Counted from the first letter of the whole stretch, positions 19,006-50,366 are shown. The stretch is DNA of 60,459 nucleotides, filler included, from 3 parts of 3 records of this genome joined end to end with filler, not necessarily neighbours in it; one strand, 5' to 3'. Numbers and translations: made by a program. Notes: generated by a model from the sequence alone, not told the origin.

Positions 19006-19027
19006 TAGCTGTGAATTAAGCTTTTAG

Positions 19028-19058: not shown

Positions 19059-19184
19059 GTCCCCTGATTTCCCCCGTGACGTTAAAAAATCGCCTCTAAC
19101 CTCCTTTTTTTCCGTCAATTTTTTGCAGCAGACACCTGCTTTAGTTTAACCTCTCTCTAAAGACTCATACTAAAGGCGTACCCC

Positions 19185-30169: not shown

Positions 30170-30269
30170 NNNNNNNNNNNNNNNNNNNNNNNNNNNNNNN
30201 NNNNNNNNNNNNNTTAATTAATTAANNNNNNNNNNNNNNNNNNNNNNNNNNNNNNNNNNNNNNNNNNNN
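30170..30269. other. Artificial contig-joining spacer
   Basis: 44 N + TTAATTAATTAA + 44 N. Confidence 0.99.
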
Positions 30270-31145: not shown

Positions 31146-31154
31146 GCGAAAAAC

Positions 31155-32288: not shown

Positions 32289-32299
32289 GGTTCAGACCC

Positions 32300-33512: not shown

Positions 33513-34226
33513 TCAGTCTTGAAGACGGCCGGGAAAGCCGATGCTGGATGCCCGTTGTACCCGCAGCCAGAGTTGTCCGTCGAAGGCCTTCCGGTCGAGA
33601 AAATCCACACGAAGTCCGAGACTGGTGCACTCGGTGTCGATCCAGGACTTGCTGTGGCGAACGATCCCCGGTTCATCGGAAACATGGCTGGTGCCGACCC
33701 ATGCTGTGCCGTTGTAGTCCTCTTCCGGGGACCTCGCAGGGAGATAGGAAACGAGGAAAACCGCATTCTCGCTCGAGTTCTGGAGAAAACCCTCCAGCAT
33801 CGTGCGGATATGAGGCTTGCTGCAATGGGTCCAGATGGACCCCGCCAGAACCAAGTCGAACTTTTTTCCGAACACGGACAGGTCGAATTCGGCATTGTGG
33901 TCGAAACGCGGCTGTCTTTGTCGAAGGACCTGATCATCAAACAACAGATCAAGTCCCCAGCGCACCCTGTCGCGGTGCGGTTCGATACCACAGTAGTTTC
34001 GCTCTCCAAGAAAGGGAATCAGCCAGTAGGCGGTCCGCAGACAACCGCAGCAGATTTCCAGCAGGCTCGTTTCCGGCGACAAGCCTTCGCGCAGGAGCTC
34101 TGCGAACTGACGTCTGCCACCTTCATCGAAGGTCTGGGTCGGCACGCCAAGAAATCCGTGGTCGAGCGCCATCTTCTCGCCAAGGCGCTGGACGTTTGTC
34201 TTTTCCTGATCCGATGCTGTCTTCAT
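33513..34226 (-). CDS. Class I SAM-dependent methyltransferase; start uncertain
   Basis: Motif I-like LLEICCGCLR, YCGIE, FDLVLAGSIWTH. Confidence 0.75.
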   Translation of the reverse strand: MKTASDQEKTNVQRLGEKMALDHGFLGVPTQTFDEGGRRQFAELLREGLSPETSLLEICCGCLRTAYWLIPFLGERNYCGIEPHRDRVRWGLDLLFDDQVLRQRQPRFDHNAEFDLSVFGKKFDLVLAGSIWTHCSKPHIRTMLEGFLQNSSENAVFLVSYLPARSPEEDYNGTAWVGTSHVSDEPGIVRHSKSWIDTECTSLGLRVDFLDRKAFDGQLWLRVQRASSIGFPGRLQD

Positions 34227-34455
34227 TGCCTTGTCTGTCTGCCCGCAACACGTTCTGTGTGAAGGTGTCAGGTCTCGCGGTTCGTGGTGTTTGTCCTGTC
34301 GTAGCAGGACGGGAACGGGCATGTGGACTACCGCGAAACAGCACCTGCGGCAAAGGCGTATTTGAAAGCTTTTGACCTTTCACGCCGTCAACGGCTATGC
34401 CATTGTTCCGCAGACCTGATCTTCAAAAACAACAACAACAGCCCCGTCAAATCAC

Positions 34456-34968
34456 ATGAGCCAATCCGAAACGCCAGAAGAACGTTTTCCCGACGTGCTT
34501 TTTTACAATGCCTCACTCACGGAGGTGCAGGAAAACGTCACAATAGGACCCGGTACACGTGTCGGTTCCATGACGATAATTCACAAGAATGCAAGCATTG
34601 GTTCTGGAACTACTATCGGGTCGCATTGCAATATTTGCGAATGTGTCATTGGCGATAATGTTTCCATTCAGACCGGCTGCCATATTACACGTGGGGTTAC
34701 TGTTGAAGATGACGTCTTCATCGGCCCGCAAGTCGTAACGCTCAACGACAAGCTGAAAGGTGGGCCAATGGTCTATCCCTATATCGAGCGCGGAGCGAAG
34801 ATCGGTGGTGGCAGCCGCATTCTTCCAGGTGTTCGTGTCGGCGCAAATGCAGTTGTCGGTGCCGGCAGTGTTGTGACCAGAGACGTTCCTCCGGGTGCCC
34901 TCGTGGTTGGTAACCCGGCTCGTGTCAGATCCGACGGACAGGACAGGCAAGCTCAGAAATCTCCATGA
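34456..34968 (+). CDS. Hexapeptide-repeat sugar N-acyltransferase (WbpD/WlbB-like)
   Basis: IGPGTR/IGSGTT/IGDNVS repeats, VEDDVFIGPQV, GAGSVVTRDVPPGALVVGNPAR. Confidence 0.85.
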   Translation: MSQSETPEERFPDVLFYNASLTEVQENVTIGPGTRVGSMTIIHKNASIGSGTTIGSHCNICECVIGDNVSIQTGCHITRGVTVEDDVFIGPQVVTLNDKLKGGPMVYPYIERGAKIGGGSRILPGVRVGANAVVGAGSVVTRDVPPGALVVGNPARVRSDGQDRQAQKSP

Positions 34969-35807
34969 AGGACCTGATCCTGAACCTTGCACCCACGGGT
35001 ATGGTGCCGACCCGTGCCATGTCGTCGGCCGTGCCGCTGTCGCCGGACGAGATCATCGCCGACTGCCGCCTGTGTGCGGACCTTGGCGCGACGATCCTGC
35101 ACATTCATGCAAGAGACGAGGATGGCCGGCCAACATTCCGGAAAGACATATACGCGCGGATCATTGCAGGTATCCGGGAAACGCACCCGGATGTGATCAT
35201 CTGCGTGTCCCTCAGCGGTCGGAACTTCCCGGAGTTCGAACGACGTTCAGACCCCTTGCAGCTGACAGGGGACCTCAGGCCTGACATGGCCAGCCTCACG
35301 CTGTCCTCGCTGAATTTTGCCCGCACCGAAAGTATCAATGCACCGGATATGGTTGCCCGCCTTGCAAAGACCATGGAAGACCGCGGCATTCGTCCCGAGC
35401 TGGAGGTCTTTGATGCGGGCATGGTGAATTACGCCAGGTATCTTGCAGACCGCGGGATATTGAAGCCTCCCTTCTATTTCAACGTGCTGCTCGGAAATCT
35501 CAGCAGTGCACAGGTAACGCCCCTGCATCTGGCGGCGATCACGCAGGATCTGCCTCCAGAATCCGTCTGGTGTGCAGGCGGGATCGGCGAAAGCCAGCTT
35601 GCCGCCAACACGCTGGGGCTCTTGTTCGGAAACGGTGTGCGAACCGGTCTGGAGGATTTTCTGTGGCTTGACGCGGACAGAACGCAACCGGCTACGAACG
35701 AGAAACTGGTTAGCCGGGTAAGCGAGCTCTGTACGCTCCTTGGTAAGCGGTTTGCCTCTGCCTCGCAGGTTCGCGAAGCGCTTGGGATGACGCCTCATGC
35801 AGGCTGA
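34965..35807 (+). CDS. Beta-keto acid cleavage enzyme family (BKACE/DUF849, Kce-like)
   Basis: APTG..VPLSPDEI, GATILHIHARD metal motif, PDMASL, PELEVFD, VRTGLED; ATGA overlap with the upstream gene. Confidence 0.9.
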   Translation: MKDLILNLAPTGMVPTRAMSSAVPLSPDEIIADCRLCADLGATILHIHARDEDGRPTFRKDIYARIIAGIRETHPDVIICVSLSGRNFPEFERRSDPLQLTGDLRPDMASLTLSSLNFARTESINAPDMVARLAKTMEDRGIRPELEVFDAGMVNYARYLADRGILKPPFYFNVLLGNLSSAQVTPLHLAAITQDLPPESVWCAGGIGESQLAANTLGLLFGNGVRTGLEDFLWLDADRTQPATNEKLVSRVSELCTLLGKRFASASQVREALGMTPHAG

Positions 35808-37128
35808 CCGTCGTCCGCTCCGGATCCTGATGACCAACAACACGCTGGATCAACCAGCCGGGTCGGAGCTTTATCTCAGGGATCTGGCGCTGTCCCTCAT
35901 GCGGCGCGGGCACTTCCCGGTGGCTTACAGCCAGAGCCTTGGCCCGGTTGCCGACCGTCTCCGAGCGGCGACCATTCCTGTCGTTGACGACCTGCGGGAC
36001 CTGTCCGCGGTGCCCGATGTGATCCACGGGCAGCATCATCTGGAAACGATGACGGCCGCGCTTCGTTTTCCGCAAGTGCCGGTCACCTATACCTGTCACG
36101 GCTGGATTCCCTGGCAGGAATGGCCACCGGTCTTCCCGAACATCCTGCACTATGTCGCGGTTGATGACCTGTGCCGGGAACGTCTTCTGACCAGTGCGGG
36201 CGTACCGGCTGACCAGATCTCGGTTCTGCATAATTTTGTCGATCTCGACCGCTTCAGAAAGGTGCGGGACCTTCCGGACAAGCCGAAGTCCGCACTTGTC
36301 TTCAGCAATTCTGCGGCTCAGGTCCCGAAGGCGATACGTGACGCCTGCACCCGCATGGGCATCGAGCGCGTCGATATCGTTGGACAGAACTCCGGCCGCT
36401 CCGCCGCACATCCGGAGACCATCCTGGCGGACTATGACGTTGTCTTTGCAAAGGCGCGCGCTGCAATCGAGGCAATGGCATCCGGATGTGCCGTTGTCGT
36501 CATGGATTACGGTCAACTTGGCGGGCTTGTCAGTTCCTCCAATCTGCAAAGCATGCGCGGATTGAATTTCGGCATCCGAACCTTGCAGAACCAGCTTTTG
36601 CATCAGGACAAGATCGAGCGTGAACTGGAGCGTTACGACGCATCGGATGCGCGCGCGGTGACACAGTGGATCAGGGCGAACGCCGGCCTGGAAGCAGCCG
36701 TGGATCGATGGCTGGAAATCTACCACAGGACCATCGAACGCTGGAGTGATGTTGCCGGGACGCTGCACGATGGCGAGAGACTGACCTCCGCATCGCGCTA
36801 TGTCAGTCAGCTTGCACCGCGGGTGAAGGCAAAGGAACAGGTGGAACATTGCAAAAACCTCGCCGATGCAGACCTCAGGGCGGCGAAAGCTCAGTTGGAG
36901 CGGGATACGGCAGTCGCTGCCAACAATGATGCGCGACACAAGGCGAGGATCGCTGAACTGGAAAGAGAAGTGCAGGGCCTGAGGAGGGAATTGCAGGGTC
37001 GGAAGAGGGAACTGGAAAGACACAGATTTCCAGGATTGGCTGTCCGGATGGCCTGGCAGGGGTTTGAGAAGCAGGTTCTCAAGCGGTGCCGCCAGCAGAT
37101 AGCGTCCTTCAGGAAGCCGAAATCGTGA
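35797..37128 (+). CDS. GT-B (GT4-like) glycosyltransferase with C-terminal coiled coil
   Basis: LRILMTN..AGSELY..LA, PDVIHGQH, VLHNFVDLDRF, AIEAMASGCAVV. Confidence 0.8.
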   Translation: MQADRRPLRILMTNNTLDQPAGSELYLRDLALSLMRRGHFPVAYSQSLGPVADRLRAATIPVVDDLRDLSAVPDVIHGQHHLETMTAALRFPQVPVTYTCHGWIPWQEWPPVFPNILHYVAVDDLCRERLLTSAGVPADQISVLHNFVDLDRFRKVRDLPDKPKSALVFSNSAAQVPKAIRDACTRMGIERVDIVGQNSGRSAAHPETILADYDVVFAKARAAIEAMASGCAVVVMDYGQLGGLVSSSNLQSMRGLNFGIRTLQNQLLHQDKIERELERYDASDARAVTQWIRANAGLEAAVDRWLEIYHRTIERWSDVAGTLHDGERLTSASRYVSQLAPRVKAKEQVEHCKNLADADLRAAKAQLERDTAVAANNDARHKARIAELEREVQGLRRELQGRKRELERHRFPGLAVRMAWQGFEKQVLKRCRQQIASFRKPKS

Positions 37129-38042
37129 CCCTGCATCTTGCCGAAATTGTCTCCGAGGAACCATTGCGCGTGCTGCTGGTTGGCCTTGGCAAGATGGGCC
37201 AGCTTCATATGGAATGCCTGTCCAAAATGCCCGGCGTTTCTATTGTCGGTATCGTCGATGAAGACGAGGGCAAAGAGATTGCTGCAAACGGGATCCCGTT
37301 CGCGCGATCGATCGATGGTCTCGCCAACGACTTTGCAGCTGCCGTTATTGCGGTTCCTGTCGAAAGGCATGCCGAGGCTGCCGTTCCGTTGCTCGCACGC
37401 GGCATCGATTGCCTTGTCGAAAAACCTTTGTCGCTGTGCCCGGGAGAGATAGAAACGATGATTGCCGCGGCCCGCACCGGCGGCGCCAGGCTATCGGTCG
37501 CGCAGGTCGAACGTTTCAACCCGGCCATCGAAAGCACGATGGCCGCCTTGCGCAAGCGCTCAGGCAAGGTGCGTGTGCAACGGCTGTCCCGGATGCAAAG
37601 CGTTGCCGGCGGCCCGGACGTGATCGCCGACCTGATGGTGCATGATCTGGACTGGATCGTGAAACTCGAGGGAACAAGTGACTGCGAGATAACGGTGCTG
37701 GAGAGCCGCAGGACGGCAGGCTGCCTGGATTATGTCTGCTGCCGTCTCGGTTTTGGCGACAGATCCTATGAGCTGGCTGCGGTCCATGGAGCCAGCAAAC
37801 GGAAGCGCAGCCTTGACGTCTGGCTGGACGGAGATGAAACGCGCTGTTTCGACCTTCTTGCGTTGTCGCCAGACGGGCGGCCGGATCCGCTGACGCGGCA
37901 GGCCGAAGTTTTTGTCATGAGCAGAGCAGGTGACGCGGCTGAACTGGCGACAGCTGAAGAGGCGCTCGCTGTACTTCGACTGTCGGACGCAATCAGACGA
38001 TACACACTCGAGACCACAAGGCCACCGGGAGGTGCGGCGTGA
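37125..38042 (+). CDS. Gfo/Idh/MocA NAD-dependent sugar dehydrogenase (WbpB/GnnA-like)
   Basis: VGLGKMGQLH, LVEKPL, ERFNPA, DLMVHDLD; GTG 37125 overlaps the upstream TGA. Confidence 0.85.
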   Translation: MTLHLAEIVSEEPLRVLLVGLGKMGQLHMECLSKMPGVSIVGIVDEDEGKEIAANGIPFARSIDGLANDFAAAVIAVPVERHAEAAVPLLARGIDCLVEKPLSLCPGEIETMIAAARTGGARLSVAQVERFNPAIESTMAALRKRSGKVRVQRLSRMQSVAGGPDVIADLMVHDLDWIVKLEGTSDCEITVLESRRTAGCLDYVCCRLGFGDRSYELAAVHGASKRKRSLDVWLDGDETRCFDLLALSPDGRPDPLTRQAEVFVMSRAGDAAELATAEEALAVLRLSDAIRRYTLETTRPPGGAA

Positions 38043-39157
38043 AGGTGATTGTTCCCTTCGCCGATGTGGTTTCCGAATGGCAACCTGTCCGGGCCAAGGC
38101 TCTGGAAGGTATCGACAGGGTGTTCTCACATGGGCGTTTTGTCGGCGGTCCGGAAGTCGCCGAGCTGGAACAGAAACTTGTCGGGATAACTGGGGCAAGG
38201 TTTGCAGTCGCTTGTGCGTCGGGAACGACGGCCCTGCAAATGGCCATGATGGCTCTCGGCATTGGGCCGGGTGATGAAGTCATTGTTCCGGGCTTTACCT
38301 TTATCGCGCCGGCGGAAAGCGCTCTTGTGCTCGGTGCGGAGCCGGTATTGGTAGACGTCCTGCACCCGTCCGGCCTGCTTGATCCGGATGAACTGGAAAC
38401 AGCGATTTCCAGTCGCACCAAGGCCATCGTCGCGGTCTCGCTTTTTGGACTGCCTGCCAACTTCGAAGCCATCAATTCGATTGCCGCAAGGCACGGAGTT
38501 CCAGTGATCGAAGACGCTGCCCAGAGCCTGGGGGCGGGGCTGGAAGACAGGCGGAGCGGCAATCTGGCGGGGCTCGGATGCACCAGTTTTTTTCCGACGA
38601 AGGTGCTCGGTGGGGCTGGGGACGGCGGAGCGGTCTTCACCAATGATGAGGCGCTCGCCAGCGCGCTTCGCGAGATCCGTGACCATGGACAAGGCGGCAA
38701 GTACCATCACCTGCGGCTGGGGATGAACGGCAGGATGAGTTCGATCGCCGCCGCTGCCCTGCTGGCGCGGCTCGACCGGTTCAGCAAGGCGTTGGATCGC
38801 CGCCGCAATATCGGTGAGCTATACGACAGGCTCCTCGAACCACTCCGGGAGACTGGTCGTTTGGATTATGTCCGCAGTCCGGACATGGCAGGCAGTGCCC
38901 GTTCGCAATATGCCGTCGTTCTGGAGGATCGCGAAGCGCTTTCCAGAGGTTTACGCGAGGCAGGCATAGAAACGGCAGTTCATTATCCCGCTCCGCTGCA
39001 CGACCAGCCGGTTCTGCAGCATTGCCGCCGGTCTGGTCGCCTCGAAACTGCGTCCATGCTGGCAAGCAGGATCCTGTGTCTGCCCATACATCCGGGCCTG
39101 ACGGATGAACAGGTGAACTTCACCGTGGAACGCCTTGGCGTGCTCGTCCAAGCCTGA
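38039..39157 (+). CDS. DegT/DnrJ/EryC1/StrS PLP sugar aminotransferase (WbpE-like)
   Basis: SGTTAL, GDEVIVPGFTF, IEDAAQSLG, SFFPTKVLGGAGDGG with PLP lysine. Confidence 0.92.
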   Translation: MKVIVPFADVVSEWQPVRAKALEGIDRVFSHGRFVGGPEVAELEQKLVGITGARFAVACASGTTALQMAMMALGIGPGDEVIVPGFTFIAPAESALVLGAEPVLVDVLHPSGLLDPDELETAISSRTKAIVAVSLFGLPANFEAINSIAARHGVPVIEDAAQSLGAGLEDRRSGNLAGLGCTSFFPTKVLGGAGDGGAVFTNDEALASALREIRDHGQGGKYHHLRLGMNGRMSSIAAAALLARLDRFSKALDRRRNIGELYDRLLEPLRETGRLDYVRSPDMAGSARSQYAVVLEDREALSRGLREAGIETAVHYPAPLHDQPVLQHCRRSGRLETASMLASRILCLPIHPGLTDEQVNFTVERLGVLVQA

Positions 39158-39188
39158 ACACCCCACCCGTTCCCGAGGCTGATGTCGG

Positions 39189-41162
39189 TCAGGCCCCGGT
39201 AAAGTCCAGAAACCGGCGGCTGAACAATGGCCTTGCCTCGTGCCGTGCGATGAGAAGATCGCGCCAGGCAGCGGGATAATCGTCCACGGCCAGCATGTCT
39301 GTCGTTTCGTGGTCGATGCCGGTGGCAACTTCGAGCAAGGCGTCCAGATCGCTGAGATCGGGTTTTGGTAGCGTATTGCTGCGGCATGCCTGCCACATTT
39401 CAGCATAAAGATCTTCCAGTTTCGAAACCAGAAGCGGCGTGTCGAAGAGGAGGCAGTCGTCCCGGCTCTCGGTCAGGCGTTGACGAAGATCCCGCAGCGC
39501 TTGGCGGTCCTTGCCGAGGTCTGCTGCGCGCTTCACGTAATCTTCCGGCGTCGGACAGACGAGCTCCTGAAGACCGGCGGCGGTGACCAGGCTCGCACAG
39601 ACCCGTGCGGCGAAACATTTTCCGGCAATCGTGAGGACCGGCACGCCCATCCAGAGGGCATCAGAGGCGGTGGTATGGGCGCCATAGGGGGTGGTGTCGA
39701 GGAAGAGGTCGGCAAGCGGATAACGTGCCAGATGGTCGGGGTTGGCCATCTTCCCGGCAAAAACCAGCCTGTCCGGAGCAATGCCTGCCGCTTCGGCACA
39801 AGCCTTGAGACGCTGGTCGGTTTCCGTTCCGCCGGTCAGCAGCCAGAGAACGCTTCCCGGTACCTTCTTCAGGATGGCGAACCAGCGGTCCAGGCAGAAC
39901 CGCGTGATCTTGTGGCTGCCGTTGAAGCAGCAGAACACCGTGCCGTCTTCCGGCAGCCCGAAATCGGAGCGTTGCCAGATGCGTTCGGACACGACGCGCT
40001 TGCGATTGTTCGGCTGGTAGCAGGGCAGGCGCAGAACCTCTTCGGAATAATAGATCTCGTGGTCCTGCGGAATGATGATGTCGTCGGCGACGATATAGTG
40101 ATGGAACGGACTGGCTGTCGTGCCCGGAAAGCCGAGCCAGTTGACGATGACCGGAGCCGGACGCAGTGCGACCAGCCGCGTACGGCCTTCCCGGGTATAG
40201 CCGTTTACGTCGATCAGGATCTGGATGCCGTCTTCGGCGATCAACCGCGCGGCAGCTTCGTCGTCGATGCCGGAAATGGTGCGCCAGTTGTCGGTGGTTT
40301 CCCGGAAATTCCGGCTGAGCGGATCATCCGCTGTCGGGCCGCAATCATAGGCGAAGATCTCGACCTTGGACCGCTCATGCAGGCCGAACACTTCCGCCAT
40401 CAGGTGACCGACGGCATGTTCGCGAAGATCGGACGACAGGTAACCGATCCGCAGCGGGCCGTCGTGCTCCATGGCCTTTGGCCATGCCTTCATGGGGGCG
40501 GAGGGCGTTCCGACGTCCTGGCGGCTGTAGTCGGCGCAAAGGCCAAGCTGAAACAGCGGGTCGTCGCTGAAGGCCGCGGCCGACAGGGGCGACATGGCCC
40601 GCACCTGCTGTGAAGGCGTTACCCGTTCCAGCGGCTGCACCACCGGCCACTCGCACTGGCGCTGCCGAAGGGCAATAAAATGCTGCGCGACTTCCCGTTG
40701 GTGCGGGTCGAGTTCCAGGCTCTGGCACAGCATGCTTTCGGCTAGAACGTCCTGGTTGGCGGCTTCCAGCGTGCGGGCAATCTGGTTGAGGGCCGTCAGA
40801 CGAACGGAGAGCGAAGCCGGCGTCACCGCAAGGGTCTGTTCCAGCACTGTGTTCCACTGGCCAACCGCCGCGCCGATATCCCCCTGCTGTTCCAGAATAC
40901 GACCGAGGTTGATATGGGCCGCATGAAAGCTCGGATTGAGGTTCAACGCGCGCTCCAGGGTCTCGCGCGCAGCCGCCAGCTTGCCGGTTTCGGAAAACAG
41001 CACAGACTGGTTGAAAAGTACTGCATACAGCAGTGGGTCATCCGGGTTCTGTGCCACCCAGGTGCCATAGAGAACTTCCGCGGCACCAAAGGAGCCGTTG
41101 CCTTTCAGGGCCTCGGCCGCGCCGATGAGTTCAACGATCGACAGGCTGGTTTCATTTGCCAT
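39189..41162 (-). CDS. GT41 OGT/SPINDLY-like protein glycosyltransferase with N-terminal TPRs
   Basis: TPR-like helices, RIGYLSSDLREHAVGHL, ILIDVNGYT, RPAPVIVNWLGFPGT, FCCFN..KI, DLFLDTTPYGAHTTASDALWMGVPVLT. Confidence 0.9.
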   Translation of the reverse strand: MANETSLSIVELIGAAEALKGNGSFGAAEVLYGTWVAQNPDDPLLYAVLFNQSVLFSETGKLAAARETLERALNLNPSFHAAHINLGRILEQQGDIGAAVGQWNTVLEQTLAVTPASLSVRLTALNQIARTLEAANQDVLAESMLCQSLELDPHQREVAQHFIALRQRQCEWPVVQPLERVTPSQQVRAMSPLSAAAFSDDPLFQLGLCADYSRQDVGTPSAPMKAWPKAMEHDGPLRIGYLSSDLREHAVGHLMAEVFGLHERSKVEIFAYDCGPTADDPLSRNFRETTDNWRTISGIDDEAAARLIAEDGIQILIDVNGYTREGRTRLVALRPAPVIVNWLGFPGTTASPFHHYIVADDIIIPQDHEIYYSEEVLRLPCYQPNNRKRVVSERIWQRSDFGLPEDGTVFCCFNGSHKITRFCLDRWFAILKKVPGSVLWLLTGGTETDQRLKACAEAAGIAPDRLVFAGKMANPDHLARYPLADLFLDTTPYGAHTTASDALWMGVPVLTIAGKCFAARVCASLVTAAGLQELVCPTPEDYVKRAADLGKDRQALRDLRQRLTESRDDCLLFDTPLLVSKLEDLYAEMWQACRSNTLPKPDLSDLDALLEVATGIDHETTDMLAVDDYPAAWRDLLIARHEARPLFSRRFLDFTGA

Positions 41163-41211
41163 TCGTGGCGGTCCTGGGTGTGTCTGGTGAGTCGGAATGA
41201 TGGCGCAAAGA

Positions 41212-44200
41212 TCAGGAGACCGCTACAGCCATGGCGGCGATTTGCTCAGGTGTCATGGTCGCGATCTGTGTCTCTGTGAAGTGTCCGATCTGGTCAGCGT
41301 CGAGCGCTTCGATCGACTGCGGGCCGAGGGCAGCGATCGCCTGCGCGCTGAGCGAACGGATCTGGGTTCCGGTGAGGCCGGACAGCTGGGCGTAAGACAT
41401 GGCTCCGATGCGCTCCGGCGCCAGGGCACCCAGCTGCGTGACCGTCAGCGCCCCGACCTGGCGCGAGGTCAGTGCTCCGAACTGGGTGGACGACAGGATC
41501 GAGATTTCACTGCTGGTTAGGTTGGAAACCTGGTTTGCGCTGAGGGAGGCGATCTGGGATGGGGTCAAAGCTGTGAATTGCGCATTTGACAGGGCGCGCA
41601 ACTGCACACGCACGAGACCGGCAAGTTGTGACGCGCTCATTTCGGCGATTTCATCAGGTGACAGCCCCGCCAGCGCGCTGGTGGAAATGGATCCGACCTG
41701 CGCAGCGCTCAGGCCGCTGATCTGGGTCAGGGTAAGCGCTTCTATCTGGTTTTCCGAAAGTCCCGCAATCGTCGACGGCAAAAGGGCGCCGATCATGGTC
41801 GAGGTGAAGGCGGTGAACTGGTCTGCAGACAAGGCGCCAATCTGGGTTGCCGTCATGCCGGAGACCGCCTCTCTGGCAAGAGCGAGAAGTTGTGTTGTCG
41901 CCAGACCACCGATCTGGTCCGCGCTCAGACCGGAGATCGCCGACGCCGACAGATATTCCATCTGCGAGGTAGAGAGCGAGCTCAGTTGCGACAGCGTCAG
42001 GCCGGCAATGGCGGTGGCGGTCAGGGCCTCCAGTCCGGTCGAACCGAGGGCGCCAAGCTGACCTGAGTTGAACTGGGAGAGCTGCGCTGCCGTCAGTCCC
42101 TTGATGCCGCTGGCCGAAAGAGCCGTAATCTGCGCGGGCTTGAGCGCGGCCAACTGGTCGGTGGTCAGGGAGGCGATCTGCGCCCCGGTCAGGCCTCCGG
42201 CTGCGGCGGGCGTCAAAAGGCCGATGCGTGTGCTGGAAAGGGAGGCGATCTGGCCGGTGTTCAGTCCGCTGATCGCAGTGGCCGACAGTGCGCCGAATTG
42301 CGGATCGGTGAAGGTGGCAAGCGTCGTTGGGGAAAGCCCGGCAAGCGCTGCTCCGGACAATCCCTCGATCTGGCTGGTCGTCAGAGCTGTGAGTTGGTCT
42401 TCCGACAGTGCACTGATTTGTGCCGCACTCAGGCCGGCAACAGCATTTTGGGACAGGGCCGAAACCTGTCCTGTTGTCAGCGCGGCCAGTTGAGGGGCGG
42501 ACAGGGCACCGGCTGCCGAGCTGGAAAGGCCACCCATCTCGATCAGCGACAATTGAGAGACCCGCAGTGGCGTCAGTGTGCCGATCTGCGTTGCCGTCAA
42601 GGCTGCAGCCTGGGTGGCGGTCATGCTCGCCCATTGTCCGCCGGAGAAAGCTGCAAGGCTCGTTGCATCGAGTGCGGCAATCGTGGTTGTCGAAAGCCCG
42701 GCAACATGCTTTCCGCTGAACATGGCGAGCTGGCCGGCTGACAACCATGAGAATTGATCGGCCCCCAGACCGGACAGGCCGGAAGGTGTCAGCGCCGCAA
42801 CCTGACGTGTGCCAAGCGCTCCGATCTGATCCTGGGTGAGAGCGCCGACTTGCGCTGCCGACAGTCCCGCAATCTGTGTCGTTGCCAGTCCGGCTATCGT
42901 TGCGCTTTCAAGGGACGCGATCTGCGCTGGTTTGAGTGCAGCGAGTTGACCGGCGGTCAATGCGGAAAACTGCTCCGCGGACAATCTGGAAAGCACGGCA
43001 GTGCCGCTTCCTGTCAGGGCGCCGGGAGCAAGCGCGGCGACCTGATCCGGATCGAACCGGGAGATCTGTTCCGGCGAAAGGCTCGAGAGGACCGTGGACG
43101 AAAGTCCGCCGATACCGGCTGTCGACATTGCAGCGATCTGATTGCCGGTGAGGGCGGCGGCCTGCTCAGTTGTCAGGGCACCTGTCTGCCTTGCCGTGAG
43201 GGCCTTTACCTGATGCGTGCTGAGGCTGGCGATCGTGCCCGGCGCCAGGCTTGAAATGACGCTTGTGGAGAGGCCTGATATCTGCTCGGAGTTCAGCGAC
43301 AGCAGTTTGTCCGTGCCAAGCTGGTCTGCCTGGGTCGGGGTCAGACCGGCAAGGGCCTTCGAAGACAGGCCGGAGATCTGCTTGTCGGTAAGAGCGCCCA
43401 GTTGCCCGGCACTCATGGCGCCGAGACCTTCGGCGGAAAGCCGCTGCATCTGCGTTTTAGACAGGCTCTCGATCTGCGTGGTCGATAGCGCTCCGACCTG
43501 ATCGCCGTTCAGAAGGCCGATGGTGATTGCAGCGAGGCTGGATATCTGGCTGGTCGAGAGTGCGGAAACTGCTGCCGGAGCAAGGCCTTTCCAGGCTGCG
43601 GCTGAAAGCGCGTTCAGTTGTGTTGTCGACAGGGAGGCGGAGGTCGCCGGGCTCAGGCCTGCAGCAGCGTCTCCGGAAATGGCGCTGACCTGGGTGGTGG
43701 TCAGTCCGGCAATCTGGCTGGTCGTGAAAGCGCCGAACTGATCAGCCGACAGCGATCCGATCTGCGTTCTCGTGAGCGCGCTGATCTGTGATGTGGAGAG
43801 GGAGGTGGTCTGTGTGGCGGTTAGTCCGGTCAGCGCCGCGGTGCTCAGACTGCTGATCTGCGACCGTGACAGCGCCGCGATCTGCTCACTCGAAAAGGCT
43901 TCAAGGGCTTCATCGCCCAGGCCCGCAATTTGTGTGGTGTTCAGGGCTGCAAGCTGTTCGTTGGTGAGGGCGGCTGCCTGAGTGGCCTTGAGCGCGCCGA
44001 TCGTTCCGGCGCTGAGGCTTTTCACCTGTGTTGCCGACAGGGCGGATATCTGGCCGGTGCTGAAAGACTGGATCTGCGTGGTGGCGAGGCCCGCCATCGC
44101 CGTGCCGGTCAAGGCGGCCAGCTGGGCATCGCTCAAGGTTGCAATTGCGGTTCGGGTCAGGCCCTTGATCCCGGTGGCCGAAAGGGCTGCGGTTTGGGTG

Positions 44201-47200
44201 GTGGTCAGCGCTTCCACCTGTGCCGTTGTCAGGCGGGTCACCTGCGCCGCGTTGAAACTGGCGATCTGGGTTGCTGTCAGCGCCGCGATCTGACCCGGCA
44301 CCAGGGCTTCGAACTGGGTTGCATTCAAGGCCTTCAACTGAACCCCTGTCAGGCCGTTCAACTGGGCTGTTGTCAGGCCCGACACGTCGGAGGCGGAAAG
44401 ACCTGCGAGACCCGTTGCAGACAATGCGCCGATCTGCTTGTCGCTCAGTGCCAGGATCTGCTCGGGCGACAGCGCATCGACCTGATCGTCGGTCAGGCCT
44501 TTCATCTGTGTTGTTGTCAGGGAGCCGAGTTGTGTCGTCGTCAGGGCGGCGATGGTCTCTTCACGCAAACCGCCGATCGCGGCTGCCGTCAGTTCTCCAA
44601 ATTGCGCGTTCGACAGAGAGCCGAGTTTGGTCGCCGTCACCGCCGCCATCTGCGTCTGGGTCAGGGCACGCAATTGCACGGAGCTGAACTGGGCCAGCTG
44701 GTCCGCGGACAATGCGGCGATCTGGGTTGCGCCGAGAGATGCGGTCTGGGTGGCTGTCAGTCCGGCAATCTGGGTTTTCTCAAGCCCCGCAATAACGTCG
44801 CTGTTCAGGCCGGCAAGCCCGGACGTCGACAGCGAGCCTATCTGTTTGGCAGACAGCGCGGCCGCCTGGGTCGAAGAGAGCACTTCGGTCTGGGTGCCGT
44901 CGAGGGCGCCTAGTGCGGCAGATGCAAGGCTTGCCACCTGTGTTGTCGACAGGGACGCCATCTGGTCCCGGGTCAGGCCCTTGGCCTGATTGGCGACAAG
45001 GGATGTGATCTGCGTTGTCGTGAAGGCGTCGAATTGCGCCGTGCTCAACTGGCCGACGGCGGTGCTGGAAAGAGCTGAAACCTGTGTGTTGCTCAGCGCG
45101 GCAATCTGGTCCGGTGTCAGAGCGGCGATCTGGCCGGAGCCGAGAGACGAAATGCCGGCTGCCGAAAGGGCGTTCAGGCGCTCGCCCTGCAGGGCGGAAA
45201 CCTGAGCATCCGTCAGGCCGGCGGTGTTGCCGGCAAGGGCTGCAATCTGGGTCGTGGACAACGCCTGGAACTGATCGGACGACAGCGATGAAACCGCCGA
45301 TGCGGTCAGGCTTTTCACCTGTGCGCCGGTGAGAGCCGCCACTTGCGTTATCGACAGCGCTGCAAGCTGGTCCGTTCCAAGGGCGGCGATTGCCTGGCCC
45401 GAGAGACCGGCAATCTGGGTCGGGGCAAGCTGGCTGAGCTGGCTCGTCGAGAAGAACCCGATCTGGGAGCCGGTCAGGCCCGACAGGGCAGTGGCGGTCA
45501 GGCTTTCCAGCCTGTCCGGCGTCAGGGCCGCGATATGGCTTTCACTCAAACCGCGGATCTGCGCCGGGGCGAGATCGGCAAGTTGCGTGTTGCCGAGCGC
45601 CGTAAACTGCTCGGCACTCAGGCTTGCGAAGGCGGTTTCGGTCAGGCTCCGCAACTGGCTGGTCGACAGGTTCGACAGGAAGCTGCCCGACAGCGCTTCC
45701 ATCTGCTCCGGTCCGAGAGCGGCAATCGTGGTGGTGGAAAAGCCCTTGATGGCGGTGCTGTTGAAGGCGGCGATCTGGTCGCTGCTGAGCTGGCGGATTG
45801 TCGTGCCGTTCAGGGCTAGCGCCTGTGCATAGCCCATCGAGCCGATCTGCTCGGTGCTGAAAGTTCGGAGCTGTCCGGCGGAAAAGGCCCGCATCTGGGG
45901 AGCGGTCAGCGAGCGAACCTGCAGCGAACCGAGAGCGCCGATCTGGGTTTCATCCAGTGCGGCGATCATCGTGGTGCCGATGCCGCGCACCTGGTTGACG
46001 CTCAAGGCGCCGATCTGGTCGGTCGACAGGGCGTCGAACTGGGTCTCGTTGAACCCTGCGATCACGAAACTGGACAGGGCGCTCAGGCGTGTGCCGGTAA
46101 GAAGCGCGATCTGGGTTTCCTTCAGCGCCTTGCCCTGGGTTGCGGTGATTGCGTTCAGCTGGGTCTCTGTCAGCGCCTTGAACTGGTCTTCGGAAAACAG
46201 CGACAGGTCGCCGGCGGTCAGTCCCTGGAATTGTGTCGTGGTCAGACTGGCGATGCGGGTCTCGCTGAGGCCGGAAATGACCTCGTTGTTGAGCGAGGTG
46301 ATCTGCGTTGCCGAGAAAGACGCGAACTGGTCTGCAGTCAGTGAGGCGACCTGTTGAGCCCCGAGGGCAGCTACCGCCGTCCGGGTCAATTGGCCGATCT
46401 GGGAAAAGTTCAGCGCGCCGAGCTGGGTCTCGTTCAGGTAACGCGTCTGGGTCTGGGTAAGGCCCTGGATTTGGGCCTTGCTGAAATTTGCGATCTGGGG
46501 AGCCGTCAGCGCACCGATCTGCGTGGTCGTCATGGCGCCGATGGAGGTTCCGGAAAAAAACCTGATCTGCCCGGGGCTGAAGGTCTGGATCTGGTCCTCG
46601 GAGAAGGACTGAACCTGCCTGGTCGACAGCACGGAGACCTGCTGGGCCGTGAGCCCGGCTAGCTGGGAGGACGTCAGTGCGGATATTTCCGGCAGCGTCA
46701 GCCCTTTCACCTGGGTGGTCGACAGAGTGCCGATATGGGTGGCGGTCAGGGCACCGAACTGGGTCGTCGTCAGTGCGGCGATGCTCTGGCTGCTGAGGGC
46801 CCGGAACTGGGTGCTGGCGAGCGACAGCAGCGTGTCGACGCTGATCGCCTTCACCTGCGGCATCGTCAGGCTGCCCATGTGGGTGGTCGTCAGCTGGCCG
46901 GATTGTTCCGCCGTCATTGCCGCAACCTGGTCCACGGTCAGATTGCGGAATTGCGACACGCTCAGCATGCCAAGCTGGGTGCTGGCCATGCCGGAAAACT
47001 GTTCCAGGCTCAGTCCCGCCACTCTCGCGGGTGAAAGCGCCTTCACCTGCAGGCCGGTCAGTGCTGCAATATCGTCAGAGCCGAAATGCGAAAACTGGCT
47101 GTCGGAAAACCCGGCGAGGACGGATGTCGCAAAGCTCTTGACCTGACCGGGCGAAAACGCCTCGATCTGTGTTCCGGAAAGATCCTGGATCTGGGTGGCG

Positions 47201-47523
47201 GAAAGGGCGGCGATCTGGGGTGCCGTCAGCGCCTGCAACTCGCTCGCGGAAAAGGCGGCAAGGTCCTCTGCCGTCAGTTGCCGGATCTGGGTGGTGGTCA
47301 GCGCGCGGATATGGTCTGCGTCGTCCGAGCTGACTTCCTGGTAGGTGATCGCATCGTAACTGGCGAGCGTCTGGGACGAGGTGAGGGTGCTGGTTCCAGA
47401 TCCCGTCGTCGTTTGTCCGGAAGTTGTATCGGAAGATGGCTCCTCCGTGGCCGGAGACACCGACGTGCTTGCAGGTGAGACGTAGAAGGTTGCCGCGCTG
47501 GGCGTGGCGTTGATTGTCGTCAC
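41212..47523 (-). CDS. Giant Ser/Thr/Ala/Leu/Gln-rich octapeptide-repeat protein (2103 aa, no signal peptide)
   Basis: 6.3-kb stop-free frame; ~74-aa S/T-rich leader then continuous 8-aa repeats; GTG start lies ~45 bp downstream of a sigma-54 motif. Confidence 0.9.
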   Translation of the reverse strand: MTTINATPSAATFYVSPASTSVSPATEEPSSDTTSGQTTTGSGTSTLTSSQTLASYDAITYQEVSSDDADHIRALTTTQIRQLTAEDLAAFSASELQALTAPQIAALSATQIQDLSGTQIEAFSPGQVKSFATSVLAGFSDSQFSHFGSDDIAALTGLQVKALSPARVAGLSLEQFSGMASTQLGMLSVSQFRNLTVDQVAAMTAEQSGQLTTTHMGSLTMPQVKAISVDTLLSLASTQFRALSSQSIAALTTTQFGALTATHIGTLSTTQVKGLTLPEISALTSSQLAGLTAQQVSVLSTRQVQSFSEDQIQTFSPGQIRFFSGTSIGAMTTTQIGALTAPQIANFSKAQIQGLTQTQTRYLNETQLGALNFSQIGQLTRTAVAALGAQQVASLTADQFASFSATQITSLNNEVISGLSETRIASLTTTQFQGLTAGDLSLFSEDQFKALTETQLNAITATQGKALKETQIALLTGTRLSALSSFVIAGFNETQFDALSTDQIGALSVNQVRGIGTTMIAALDETQIGALGSLQVRSLTAPQMRAFSAGQLRTFSTEQIGSMGYAQALALNGTTIRQLSSDQIAAFNSTAIKGFSTTTIAALGPEQMEALSGSFLSNLSTSQLRSLTETAFASLSAEQFTALGNTQLADLAPAQIRGLSESHIAALTPDRLESLTATALSGLTGSQIGFFSTSQLSQLAPTQIAGLSGQAIAALGTDQLAALSITQVAALTGAQVKSLTASAVSSLSSDQFQALSTTQIAALAGNTAGLTDAQVSALQGERLNALSAAGISSLGSGQIAALTPDQIAALSNTQVSALSSTAVGQLSTAQFDAFTTTQITSLVANQAKGLTRDQMASLSTTQVASLASAALGALDGTQTEVLSSTQAAALSAKQIGSLSTSGLAGLNSDVIAGLEKTQIAGLTATQTASLGATQIAALSADQLAQFSSVQLRALTQTQMAAVTATKLGSLSNAQFGELTAAAIGGLREETIAALTTTQLGSLTTTQMKGLTDDQVDALSPEQILALSDKQIGALSATGLAGLSASDVSGLTTAQLNGLTGVQLKALNATQFEALVPGQIAALTATQIASFNAAQVTRLTTAQVEALTTTQTAALSATGIKGLTRTAIATLSDAQLAALTGTAMAGLATTQIQSFSTGQISALSATQVKSLSAGTIGALKATQAAALTNEQLAALNTTQIAGLGDEALEAFSSEQIAALSRSQISSLSTAALTGLTATQTTSLSTSQISALTRTQIGSLSADQFGAFTTSQIAGLTTTQVSAISGDAAAGLSPATSASLSTTQLNALSAAAWKGLAPAAVSALSTSQISSLAAITIGLLNGDQVGALSTTQIESLSKTQMQRLSAEGLGAMSAGQLGALTDKQISGLSSKALAGLTPTQADQLGTDKLLSLNSEQISGLSTSVISSLAPGTIASLSTHQVKALTARQTGALTTEQAAALTGNQIAAMSTAGIGGLSSTVLSSLSPEQISRFDPDQVAALAPGALTGSGTAVLSRLSAEQFSALTAGQLAALKPAQIASLESATIAGLATTQIAGLSAAQVGALTQDQIGALGTRQVAALTPSGLSGLGADQFSWLSAGQLAMFSGKHVAGLSTTTIAALDATSLAAFSGGQWASMTATQAAALTATQIGTLTPLRVSQLSLIEMGGLSSSAAGALSAPQLAALTTGQVSALSQNAVAGLSAAQISALSEDQLTALTTSQIEGLSGAALAGLSPTTLATFTDPQFGALSATAISGLNTGQIASLSSTRIGLLTPAAAGGLTGAQIASLTTDQLAALKPAQITALSASGIKGLTAAQLSQFNSGQLGALGSTGLEALTATAIAGLTLSQLSSLSTSQMEYLSASAISGLSADQIGGLATTQLLALAREAVSGMTATQIGALSADQFTAFTSTMIGALLPSTIAGLSENQIEALTLTQISGLSAAQVGSISTSALAGLSPDEIAEMSASQLAGLVRVQLRALSNAQFTALTPSQIASLSANQVSNLTSSEISILSSTQFGALTSRQVGALTVTQLGALAPERIGAMSYAQLSGLTGTQIRSLSAQAIAALGPQSIEALDADQIGHFTETQIATMTPEQIAAMAVAVS
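41230..47301 (-). repeat. About 250 degenerate 24-nt/8-aa tandem coding repeats, consensus L-[ST]-x-x-Q-[ILVF]-x-[AGS]
   Basis: e.g. LTTTQIRQ LTAEDLAA FSASELQA LTAPQIAA LSATQIQD LSGTQIEA; GATCTG recurs on the + strand at multiples of 24 nt; count estimated from length. Confidence 0.9.
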
Positions 47524-47567
47524 TTAAGGAGGTTCCAGAAAGCCCCATAGCGGGCCGAAGGCTGCTC

Positions 47568-47584
47568 AGCAACTTCCGTGCCAG
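47568..47584 (-). promoter_or_regulatory. Sigma-54 (-24/-12) promoter for the repeat protein-GT41 operon
   Basis: Minus strand reads CTGGCACGGAAGTTGCT, matching YTGGCACG-N4-TTGCW exactly. Confidence 0.85.
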
Positions 47585-47646
47585 TGCCTGTTTTTGCGAA
47601 AAACGCTGATTTCTCCTATTGAATGGATGCTGGCTGTTGGCTCCGT

Positions 47647-47805
47647 CGGACAAAATCTGCCGCTGTCCCCAGGCAAAATTCGCCCGGTGCTGGTGGTGCG
47701 CTCGGCAGGAAATGCCCTGGCGCGGCCATGCCATGGGCCGGCGTTGGCTGAGGAGGCTCCGAGCAAACGCTGCTTGATTGAGAAGCCGTCTGGCGGAATT
47801 GGCCG
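47647..47805. promoter_or_regulatory. Cluster of GGCA-N5-TGCC-like dyads, candidate enhancer-binding protein (FlbD ftr-like) sites
   Basis: GACA-AAATC-TGCC (47649), GGCA-AAATT-CGCC (47672), CTC-GGCA-GGAAA-TGCC (47701), GGCG-GAATT-GGCC (47792). Confidence 0.5.
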
Positions 47806-47849
47806 AGAGATTTTGATCCGCGGCAGCTTTGTGATGCTGCCGGGCATCT

Positions 47850-47866
47850 TTGGCACGGCGCGTGCT
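47850..47866 (+). promoter_or_regulatory. Second, divergent sigma-54-type promoter upstream of the epimerase
   Basis: TTGGCACGGCGCGTGCT, GG-N10-GC spacing, one mismatch to consensus, ~70 bp before ATG 47935. Confidence 0.6.
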
Positions 47867-47934
47867 AGGCGCGATTTAACGGCCGAGCGGGTAGGCGGCC
47901 GGGCTTTCGCAGCTACCCTGGAACACACCACAAC

Positions 47935-48894
47935 ATGTCCCTTCCCATTCTGATCACTGGAAGTGCCGGCCTTATCGGGTCCGCCCTTGTGGACACGCTG
48001 ACGGCGCTGGGCCGTCCTGTCCGCACGTTTGATATTGCCGATGCTGGGCAGGACAGCCGCAACGGCGCTGCGGTTGAAGACGCGGTGCGGGGCTGCGGCG
48101 GCGTAATTCACCTGGCAGCAGTGTCCCGGGTGCTTTGGGGTGAGCATAATCCCGTGCTGTGCCGGGACGTGAATGTCGGGGGAACCCGCAACGTTCTTGC
48201 AGCTGCTGCATGTAGCGGGAGCCGTCCCTGGGTTCTCTTCGGCAGCAGCCGGGAAGCTTATGGGCCGGTCACCCGATTTCCGGCTAATGAAGACACTGCA
48301 CGCTGCCCGATGAATGTCTACGGACGGTCAAAGCTGGCAGGCGAGAAGCTGGTGGAGGCAGCCCAGGAGGCCGGTGTCAAGGCTGCTATCCTGCGGTTTT
48401 CGAACGTCTATGGCCGGATTTCCGATCATGCGGACCGTGTTGTTCCCGCCTTCGCAAGAGCCGCCGCCGGAGGGCACAGATTGCAGGTCGAGGGCCGCAA
48501 TCATGTCTTCGACTTCAATTATCTGGATGATGTCGTTGACGGTATCCTGAAGATGGTCACTTTCATCGAGGCGGAACGGAAGGCGCCGCCGCCTGTGCAA
48601 TTCGTCTCCGGGGTCGGCACCAGCCTGACCGAACTTGCCGAAGCCAGCGTACGGCTTGCCGGAACGGCCGCCGAAATCCACCATGTCGGGCCGCGCAGCT
48701 TCGACGTCAACGGCTTCGTCGGATCGGGGGAACGCGCCCGGCAATTGCTTGGCTGGCAAACGAAGACAAGCATAGAGGAAGGGCTTGCGCATATGGTCCG
48801 GGCCTTTGCGGATGCAAATGGCAAGGCGCAGCTTGCAGAGCCTGCATGTGGCTTCAGTGCAGGTGCTACTGACCCCGGTCTGTCCGCTGTTTGA
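47935..48894 (+). CDS. NAD-dependent nucleotide-sugar epimerase/dehydratase
   Basis: ITGSAGLIG, VIHLAA, YGRSK (YxxxK), LRFSNVYG, DFNYLDDVV. Confidence 0.9.
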   Translation: MSLPILITGSAGLIGSALVDTLTALGRPVRTFDIADAGQDSRNGAAVEDAVRGCGGVIHLAAVSRVLWGEHNPVLCRDVNVGGTRNVLAAAACSGSRPWVLFGSSREAYGPVTRFPANEDTARCPMNVYGRSKLAGEKLVEAAQEAGVKAAILRFSNVYGRISDHADRVVPAFARAAAGGHRLQVEGRNHVFDFNYLDDVVDGILKMVTFIEAERKAPPPVQFVSGVGTSLTELAEASVRLAGTAAEIHHVGPRSFDVNGFVGSGERARQLLGWQTKTSIEEGLAHMVRAFADANGKAQLAEPACGFSAGATDPGLSAV

Positions 48895-49081
48895 TTGCTG
48901 TTTCTTGAGCTGGTGCCGGTTGAAACGACCGGCCTGGCTTGCCCTGTTGCCATGAATCGGATTAGCTGCAGGAAAGCGTGGCCAATGGTGCCGTCTTGCT
49001 ACTGCAACGCTTGCCCGCGATTTGCAATTGCCTGATATCCTTGGGGAAATTTCTTCCGTCAATCGCCGTAAAGCGGATTTT

Positions 49082-49097
49082 TGATTGACGTATGTCA
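49082..49097. promoter_or_regulatory. Degenerate LacI-type operator upstream of the regulator (autoregulation)
   Basis: TGATTGACGTATGTCA shares ACGTATGTCA with the perfect palindrome at 50398. Confidence 0.6.
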
Positions 49098-49237
49098 GAA
49101 TGCTGCGCGACATTGTCTCCCTGTCGGTCAGCGGGTGTCCGGTCGATCCCGCGGGGGCGCCCGGACGCTGATCGGCGTTGAAGTGGTGGATCATCTTGTC
49201 TGCGTTCACGAGAACGCGGGATGGTCCGGGAGACGTA

Positions 49238-50266: not shown

Positions 50267-50366
50267 GGCTGGCCGCTCCGGCCAAGAGTTCTGTCCCTTA
50301 AAAATAAGCAATATCAATATCATGCCCTGTGTTGTCGGCATGGTTCAGGTCTGATTGATCTCGAAA

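Follow-up and report, generated by a model that had tools for sequence, protein, structure and literature searches.

A GT41 glycosyltransferase and an octapeptide-repeat giant form a conserved pair beside a separable amino-sugar operon in an alphaproteobacterial genome

The stretch of DNA analyzed here (the window: 60,459 nucleotides, made up of three parts of three records of the genome of one marine alphaproteobacterium, joined with filler) contains, between positions 33513 and 48894, a gene for a giant octapeptide-repeat protein of the ALTTAQ family (PF20080), a gene for a glycosyltransferase of family GT41, and a set of amino-sugar genes that converges on these two. An initial annotation had read the region as a dedicated protein-glycosylation system. 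The nine genes that it named were all recovered, each in its place, in the open reading frame (ORF) table and in scans with Pfam and NCBIfam models:

33513-34322, minus strand: probable S-adenosylmethionine (SAM)-dependent methyltransferase, class I (269 amino acids; no family above threshold)
34456-34968, plus strand: hexapeptide (left-handed beta-helix, LbH) N-acyltransferase, operon gene 1 (170 amino acids; Hexapep, E = 2e-24)
34965-35807, plus strand: BKACE, beta-keto acid cleavage enzyme (280 amino acids; PF05853, 265 bits, E = 9.5e-79, full length)
35797-37128, plus strand: GT4-like GT-B glycosyltransferase (443 amino acids; PF13439, the GT4 N-terminal domain, residues 22-152 only)
37086-38042, plus strand: Gfo/Idh/MocA oxidoreductase (318 amino acids; PF01408, E = 1.7e-17)
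38039-39157, plus strand: DegT/DnrJ/EryC1 pyridoxal phosphate-dependent sugar aminotransferase, last operon gene (372 amino acids; PF01041, 343 bits, E = 3e-102)
39189-41162, minus strand: TPR-GT41 glycosyltransferase, OGT/XcOGT-like (657 amino acids; PF13844 Glyco_transf_41, 274.1 bits, plus TPR)
41212-47523, minus strand: ALTTAQ-repeat giant (2103 amino acids; PF20080 ALTTAQ_rpt, 711.9 bits, E = 3.4e-220, 24 stretches)
47935-48894, plus strand: extended short-chain dehydrogenase/reductase (SDR) nucleotide-sugar epimerase/dehydratase, divergent from the giant (319 amino acids; PF01370, E = 6e-38)

The packing of the genes is as the annotation had described it. The repeat giant is followed by the TPR-GT41 gene, with 49 nt between the ALTTAQ stop codon and the GT41 start; the five plus-strand operon genes overlap by 4, 11, 43, and 4 nt and run toward the pair, with 31 nt between the DegT and GT41 genes. 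In what follows, module 1 denotes the epimerase (47935-48894), the giant (41212-47523), and GT41 (39189-41162), and module 2 denotes the methyltransferase (33513-34322) together with the operon (34456-39157). The methyltransferase that the annotation had placed at the edge is present as a gene and its label is probable only: the Pfam match (Methyltransf_12, E = 0.0024) is sub-threshold at 19 bits against a cut-off of 30, and the language-model likeness to class I SAM methyltransferase clusters is 0.99. The family scan of positions 30222-51811 took in 15 candidate ORFs of 193 amino acids and longer, out of a longer list whose other entries are mostly overlapping or antisense frames. Among the ORFs scanned, we found no family corresponding to Wzx, Wzy, Wzm, Wzt, a phosphoglycosyl transferase, or secretion genes, in line with the annotation, and family scans of the ORFs gave no flagellar gene in the window. 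These observations establish the gene content of the locus.

The GT41 protein matches PF13844 in two stretches with 274.1 bits against a cut-off of 25, and eight TPR families match residues ∼48-152, a stretch that aligns to the TPRs of human O-GlcNAc transferase (OGT). Its alignment with XcOGT (2jlb) covers residues 60-564 (E = 5e-84), and that with human OGT (E = 1e-89) takes in the two catalytic lobes; the segments SSDLREHAVGHLM, FNGSHKI, and YGAHTTASD fall opposite SSDFGNHPTSHLM, FNQLYKI, and CNGHTTGMD of the human enzyme, whose His, Lys, and H-T-T motif we take to have catalytic or UDP-binding roles. H249, K418, T497, and T498 of the window protein are invariant in five orthologues, and the enzyme looks active from its sequence. 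Identity as an N-glycosyltransferase (NGT) of the HMW1C type was considered and ruled out (NF049992 NGTferase, 23.2 bits against a cut-off of 1000, residues 333-380 only). To our knowledge, the natural substrate of XcOGT is unknown, and although bacterial OGT homologues have been crystallized, we know of no answer to the open question of their cellular targets.

The octapeptide repeat of the giant, likewise part of the initial annotation, is real and far above chance (711.9 bits against a PF20080 cut-off of 26.4, in 24 stretches). The protein, ∼205 kDa when unmodified, consists of ∼74 N-terminal Ser/Thr/Pro-rich residues followed by a single array of ∼253 octads with the consensus L-[T/S]-x-[T/A/D/S]-Q-[I/L/V/F]-x-[A/S/G], which extends to within a few residues of the C terminus. 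Computed on hydrophobic positions, the autocorrelation stands at 0.81 for a lag of 8 and is still 0.77 for a lag of 48, and a sliding-register test picks up one register slip, of one residue, at residues ∼746-800; the repeat structure is thereby established. Ser and Thr together account for 545 of the 2103 residues (26%) and for 31-69% of residues at octad positions 2-4. There are 12 N-x-S/T sequons, among 36 Asn, and the 2103 residues contain no GGxGxD motif and no hydrophobic segment resembling a signal peptide or membrane span (maximum 19-residue hydropathy 1.45). PF20080 giants of 1,800-5,700 residues occur in 24 of 401 sampled Pseudomonadota genomes, and the family occurs in 2 of 61 relatives. 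Among titles and the opening lines of abstracts, we found no publication on ALTTAQ repeats, those mentioning PF20080 being concerned with other matters, and none on GT41 or O-GlcNAc transferase with repeat proteins or type I secreted giants that describes a GT41-ALTTAQ pairing.

We read the motif h-S/T-x-x-Q-h (h, hydrophobic) as a helix N-cap with a capping box and a hydrophobic staple, which would lead one to expect one short helix per octad. AlphaFold2 modeling of 320 residues of the giant gave 40 helices of 4-6 residues, one per octad (pLDDT 93.3, pTM 0.83); the input alignment comprised 39 in-register segments from the window giant and six related giants, and the modeled fragment excludes the register-slip region (∼746-800). 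The giant is thus predicted to fold as a long rod in which each octad forms one very short helix. In a Foldseek search with the rod model, no TM score exceeded 0.34 and the leading hits were designed repeat proteins, mesothelin, and armadillo repeats; with VIA-align, the best Z among 48,161 chains was 7.7, with a root-mean-square deviation of 11.7 Å. A Z of 7.7 is too low to mean anything for helical repeats, so that no solved counterpart is identified by these searches and none is excluded.

A locus search seeded with the giant, using patterns from its non-repeat stretches, returned no confirmed relative, and the GT41 alignment was then used: it was scanned over one genome per species, the best 80 loci were kept, and these were divided by the enzyme alone into 39 close loci (at least 90% coverage and at least 44% identity) and 41 weaker or partial ones. 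An ALTTAQ gene is present in 36 of the 39 close loci and in 2 of the 41 others, the latter two both being split GT41 matches of ∼48% identity. In 34 of the close loci, the ALTTAQ gene precedes GT41 on the strand that they share, and in 31 no more than 300 nt separate its last match from GT41 (one close locus, L049, is the same DNA as the locus of genome G071 discussed below); three close loci are without a giant, and one of these has just 193 nt of upstream DNA. The close loci span Caulobacterales, Hyphomicrobiales, Rhodospirillales, Acetobacteraceae, and magnetotactic lineages and are found also in Desulfovibrio- and Geobacter-like bacteria, an acidobacterium, and a Bordetella-like metagenome-assembled genome. 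They are often in prosthecate or stalked genera (Caulobacter, Asticcacaulis, Phenylobacterium, Hyphomonadaceae, Hyphomicrobium, Ancalomicrobiaceae) and also in magnetotactic bacteria, an observation in which sampling bias is possible.

Individual genomes tell the same story. In G057 (same order, other family), a 2965-residue giant directly precedes a 61% identical GT41 and unrelated housekeeping genes follow, and in G459 (same genus), GT41 (69% identical), a 2182-residue giant, and the epimerase (68%) are grouped elsewhere in the chromosome, flanked by a TetR gene and a sugar-uptake operon. When ten further PF20080-positive genomes were searched for GT41, it was present in nine; it lies within ∼20 kb of the giant in four of the ten (G071, G335, G195, and G111), and in four fragmented assemblies the listed giant and GT41 matches are on different contigs. 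The linkage of repeat-protein homologues to GT41 that the initial annotation had expected is therefore borne out by the neighborhood survey (36/39 close against 2/41 distant loci). Synteny is conserved, and it argues strongly, G057 and G459 included, for GT41 and the giant as a functional unit. Separately, a family that we call f61 (G111, G147, G167, G195, and G207; genomes of 3-4.5 Mb) has many ALTTAQ giants, with open frames of up to 5,692 residues, as well as GT41 paralogues arrayed in tandem, three or four at a time, a sign that the GT41-ALTTAQ system may have expanded greatly in one lineage.

A functional unit need not mean enzyme and substrate: GT41 could act on other proteins, such as flagellins or cytoplasmic targets, with the giant co-inherited as an unglycosylated scaffold or regulator. 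Eukaryotic OGT, which has thousands of substrates, and the TPR-containing glycosyltransferases that modify Caulobacter flagellins offer precedents; in addition, not all of the many GT41 paralogues in the f61 genomes are near a giant, and in G100 the two genes are 138 kb apart. The arrangement in the close loci does not favor this explanation: with the giant first and GT41 second on a common strand, no more than 300 nt apart in 31 of the 39 and across several classes, it has the look of a substrate-enzyme operon. The 26% Ser/Thr content of the giant and the lack of a flagellar gene in the window do not favor it either. We consider it improbable.

The nearest solved chains to the SDR epimerase (47935-48894) are 6wjb and 6wj9 (E = 1e-27), which we take to be a UDP-GlcNAc 4-epimerase, followed by UDP-glucose 4-epimerases. 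A tblastn panel of linked proteins, run over the 80 GT41 loci, showed that 8 of the 39 close ones have SDR genes downstream of GT41 (in loci L042 and L074, the SDR gene begins ∼100 nt after GT41), and that SDR or DegT genes lie in 11/39 close against 2/41 distant loci. These counts, and the co-occurrence in G459, point to an SDR enzyme as a frequent third member, and the epimerase of the window is probably the third member of the pair module. Other neighbors vary by lineage. In G335, two giants bracket an ABC transporter of a type I secretion system (T1SS), HlyD, three DegT and two SDR genes, a large GT4/GT1 protein, two methyltransferases, and GT41; in G071, an ABC transporter with a C39-like N terminus and HlyD come directly before the giant, and a hexapeptide acyltransferase and GT41 after it; in G195, a GDP-mannose dehydratase and DegT stand beside four tandem GT41 genes and a giant; and in G111, RmlA, RmlC, and an RmlB-like gene are found beside GT41 and the giant. 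Judged by gene content, the combination of the pair with a lineage-variable sugar cassette is a real pattern, and it makes a local, strain-specific role of the window operon possible.

The distribution of that operon was followed by protein and DNA searches. The GT4 protein is found in 5 of 72 genomes of the genus (G001, G026, G836, G862, and G031) and GT41 in 2 of 72 (G001 and G459), the two together only in G001; among 401 sampled genomes of the class, GT4 is found in one. In a DNA search of 41 genus genomes, window positions 33553-39100 matched three genomes, G001, G026, and G031, plus G033 as a fragment, and no others; GT41 matched only G001 and G459. G026, G836, G862, and G031 have the operon without GT41 or ALTTAQ; G459, where the operon gave no DNA-level match, and G057 have the pair and no operon; and BKACE or this GT4 lies within 10 kb in 0 of the 80 GT41 loci. 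In G026, G836, and G862, which we count as one lineage because their flanks are 86-90% identical, the methyltransferase and the five operon genes are syntenic, with a major facilitator superfamily transporter and a phosphatase-family gene as neighbors; G031 has a rearranged copy of the operon with an extra GT1, and BKACE is syntenic there too. The methyltransferase homologue, 67% identical, has the same relative place in G026 and G836. In G862 (L122, 12938-13212), it matches residues 42-133 only, in two pieces, and may therefore be broken, the five operon genes being intact.

The separability of the two modules is thus a matter of observation, and from its sequence distribution the operon is a separable, mobile cassette within Roseibium-like genomes and at most a strain-specific accessory for the glycan of the giant. 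The initial annotation had the operon supply that glycan, which is not supported as a general rule, since operon and pair each occur alone and co-occur in 0/80 loci; of its dedicated-glycosylation interpretation, the part concerning the GT41/giant unit holds up and the part making the five-gene operon a general glycan source does not.

There is a way to keep the whole 15-kb region together as one glycosylation island for one substrate: in such a single dedicated system, GT41 would prime the giant, and the acylated, methylated diamino sugar made by the operon would be added by GT4 or used by GT41. The tight packing, with the DegT and GT41 genes convergent at 31 nt, is what one would expect of it, and the layout is bridged by contigs in three of four sequencing runs (X1, X17, and X18, from separate studies) and is present in G001. 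Sugar genes beside the pair in G335, G195, and G111, the excess of SDR or DegT genes in close loci (11/39 against 2/41), and the lack of a lipid-carrier or polymer-export partner for the operon among the ORFs scanned are also consistent with it. It is harder to square with the operon standing alone in G026, G836, G862, and G031, all without a GT41 match, with the pair and epimerase of G459, where there is no DNA-level operon match, with the count of 0/80 GT41 loci with BKACE or this GT4, and with a GT4 family (2009 relatives) that is spread far wider than the pair. On balance, we think a single system rather unlikely.

Concerning the enzymes of module 2, the acyltransferase matches the NeuD/PglB/VioB subfamily of NCBIfam at 91 bits, below the cut-off of 160.8, and its nearest solved chains are 4mzu (WxcM-like), 7s3u/7s43 (N-acetyltransferase), QdtC (3fs8), and 3mqg (E = 5e-28 to 4e-15); its nearest solved relatives are N-acetyltransferases of 3-amino sugars. 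BKACE is below all NCBIfam equivalog cut-offs, and we infer that it makes an unusual acyl-CoA donor for the acyltransferase. The best NCBIfam match of the Gfo/Idh/MocA protein, a probable nucleotide-sugar 3-dehydrogenase by sequence, is UDP-GlcNAc 3-dehydrogenase (NF040723, 87 bits against a cut-off of 450), and DegT matches the PseC, WecE, and LegC models, all below cut-off. GT4 has no sequence match to any solved structure; its AlphaFold2 model, of moderate confidence (pLDDT 69.4), has two Rossmann-like halves plus long helices at residues 298-439, a coiled-coil-like C-terminal tail, and the best Foldseek matches are MshA, PglA, BshA, and PimA (TM ∼0.5), a likeness that does not tell the acceptor. 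In a large protein collection, GT4 has 2009 relatives at E ≤ 1e-10, from many phyla. One relative of 599 residues and 52% identity (P0027) has hexapeptide-repeat domains fused to the GT4 domain, which suggests that acyltransferase and GT4 are functionally tied.

On this basis, module 2 would make a 3-amino, N-acylated, possibly methylated hexosamine nucleotide, through the successive action of the 3-dehydrogenase, the aminotransferase, and the LbH N-acyltransferase, the last with a BKACE-made acyl-CoA other than acetyl-CoA; the probable methyltransferase would provide the methyl group, and GT4 would transfer the sugar to some acceptor. That acceptor might be an envelope glycan (lipopolysaccharide [LPS] O-antigen or core, capsule, or glycolipid) whose assembly genes are elsewhere, the adjacency to the pair then reflecting a shared variable region. 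A dehydrogenase, a DegT aminotransferase, and an N-acyltransferase are the layout of the 2,3-diamino-sugar route of O-antigen synthesis, which the trio in the operon resembles. Moreover, 3mqg, near the acyltransferase among solved chains, is named "Lipopolysaccharides biosynthesis acetyltransferase," the fold matches of GT4 (MshA, PglA, PimA, and BshA) are enzymes whose acceptors are small or lipid-linked, the operon has a patchy, mobile distribution in the genus, and the region is variable, as seen from the divergence of the window and G001 left of base 30270. A point on the other side is that no Wzx, Wzy, ABC exporter, or initiating transferase lies near the operon copies examined in G026 and G031. 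We hold an envelope role to be possible but not probable.

With regard to export, the initial annotation had noted the absence of secretion genes, which is correct for the ORFs scanned in the cluster, neither T1SS ABC or membrane-fusion genes nor a TpsB-like two-partner family being found among them; related loci, for their part, do have type I secretion genes beside the giant. A T1SS ABC or HlyD gene (at least 35% identity and at least half coverage) is found in 4/39 close and 2/41 distant loci, L049 being one of the four close ones, so type I secretion is an occasional neighbor of the pair. We infer from these neighbor genes in other genomes that the giant is most likely exported as a surface or extracellular fiber.

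Our preferred interpretation, to which we give a probability of about 0.55, is that two separable modules lie side by side, that GT41 O-glycosylates the mini-helix rod, which is probably exported, and that the sugar operon is accessory at most. Module 1 would be a substrate-plus-enzyme cassette, with the giant as the presumed glycosylation substrate. The cytoplasmic, OGT-type GT41, using a UDP-sugar, would O-glycosylate exposed Thr/Ser at octad positions 2-4, with the SDR epimerase probably supplying the donor epimer, and the glycosylated giant would then be exported, by type I secretion in related loci. An extension of the giant's glycan by module 2 is possible in the present strain; the comparative data do not require it.

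Several points weigh against this interpretation. Conserved synteny shows coupling and not the direction of a reaction, and the close-GT41 loci L048 and L053, with 2.9 and 1.9 kb of upstream DNA, have no ALTTAQ match; likewise, the giant and GT41 of G100 are 138 kb apart, and G345 has a giant and no GT41 match. At octad position 2, Ser/Thr may have a structural, capping role and not serve as acceptors, and the in-register repeat alignment given to AlphaFold2 may favor a periodic model. The giant has neither a signal peptide nor an RTX motif, no secretion gene is among the window ORFs scanned, and the best match in G001 to an ALTTAQ-linked T1SS ABC query is 31% identical and lacks the N-terminal part; with no exporter found in the genome, a cytoplasmic role for the giant is possible. 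Every module 2 match to a named enzyme falls below the curated cut-offs. Finally, the 31-nt convergent packing and the sugar genes beside the pair in G335, G195, and G111 fit a single system equally well.

Comparison with known systems brings out what is familiar in the locus and what is not. Like XcOGT (XCC0866; PDB: 2jlb, 2vsy, 2vsn) and human OGT, the window GT41 combines short N-terminal TPRs with a GT41 catalytic domain and conserved His, Lys, and HTT residues; unlike human OGT, it lacks the intervening domain, and in contrast to XcOGT it has a specific neighbor gene as a candidate substrate. The likeness to Haemophilus HMW1/HMW1C is that of a very large (exported) protein beside a dedicated cytoplasmic glycosyltransferase that would act on many of its sites ahead of export. 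However, the window enzyme is not an NGT and has TPRs in place of the all-alpha domain of HMW1C, and the giant, compared with HMW1, has 12 N-x-S/T sequons against 545 Ser/Thr and no two-partner secretion gene among the ORFs scanned. With the Gram-positive serine-rich repeat proteins and GtfA/GtfB, the locus would share the logic of a Ser/Thr-rich repeat protein glycosylated by a dedicated cytoplasmic enzyme, with strain-variable further sugars, but the primer is GT41 here and GT4 GtfA/B there, SecA2/SecY2 and Asp genes are absent here, the repeats are predicted to form a rod rather than being disordered, and the host is Gram-negative. RTX-type T1SS adhesins differ from the giant, which has no GGxGxD motif and no adjoining ABC or membrane-fusion genes; the uncleaved C-terminal secretion signal of such adhesins follows no consensus.

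For module 2, the natural comparison is the UDP-2,3-diacetamido-2,3-dideoxy-sugar pathway, whose enzymes are WbpB/WbpE/WbpD in Pseudomonas and WlbA/WlbC/WlbB in Bordetella. The two have in common a Gfo/Idh/MocA protein, DegT, and an LbH N-acyltransferase in one operon. The window operon differs by an additional BKACE and by the divergent methyltransferase next to it, from which a non-acetyl acyl group may be suspected; it has no 6-dehydrogenase or 2-epimerase, and there are no O-antigen assembly genes among the ORFs scanned. In sum, the logic of a dedicated cytoplasmic glycosyltransferase and a giant substrate is a known one, with enzyme class, acceptor type, substrate fold, and secretion route differing here; particular to the window are the BKACE-containing amino-sugar operon adjoining the pair, and its separability.

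The conserved two-gene cassette names a concrete candidate substrate for bacterial OGT homologues. The predicted mini-helix rod, at one and a half turns per helix and with no clear solved counterpart, may represent a new structural class of bacterial fiber, and the placement of BKACE in a sugar pathway hints at an uncommon N-acyl group. Very tentatively, one may go further and propose that bacterial OGT-type GT41 enzymes have a dedicated substrate in mini-helix rods that are sugar-coated in the cytoplasm, partly exported by T1SS, and served by lineage-specific sugar cassettes in the manner of flagellin glycosylation islands, the cassette here providing a BKACE-dependent N-acylated, methylated diamino sugar that is added by the coiled-coil GT4. 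We would not expect this larger scheme to hold in full.

As to the genomic setting, the alphaproteobacterial origin given by the initial annotation agrees with GT4 proteins, 95% identical, from Roseibium aggregatum (Stappiaceae, Hyphomicrobiales, Alphaproteobacteria), and the nearest relatives of a dihydroxyacetone kinase in the window (∼70% identity) are on alphaproteobacterial replicons of Ruegeria, Ensifer, and Rhizobium. Between base 30270 and at least 57976, the window is 98-99% identical to G001, the nearest genome, and the two diverge to the left of 30270, from which we conclude that the region is variable. The identity sets in exactly at base 30270, where a 3.2-kb block with three minus-strand ORFs without a family (30222-33376) also has its left boundary; the block is conserved, at 74-89%, in a further 18 of the 41 genus genomes. 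To the left of it are a hybrid histidine kinase (27190-29544) and a TrmO-like gene (29614-30132), the latter matching only the second half of its N-domain model; save for a short kinase motif, the two are in none of the 41 genus genomes. Six sequencing runs labeled as RNA contain the stretch, and the four that were examined, as contigs only, have records of 50-165 kb, which makes it probable that these runs contain DNA. Downstream of the epimerase, long ORFs oppose each other at 48962-50341 (459 residues on the minus strand; third-codon-position GC content 0.65) and 49178-50266 (362 residues on the plus strand; 0.73); the minus-strand ORF has no family and weak language-model recognition, which leaves the gene call unsettled. 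Elsewhere in the window, and unrelated to the glycosylation locus, positions 15757-21950 carry a DUF1302/DUF1329 outer-membrane pair followed by a 921-residue LuxR/MalT-type regulator.

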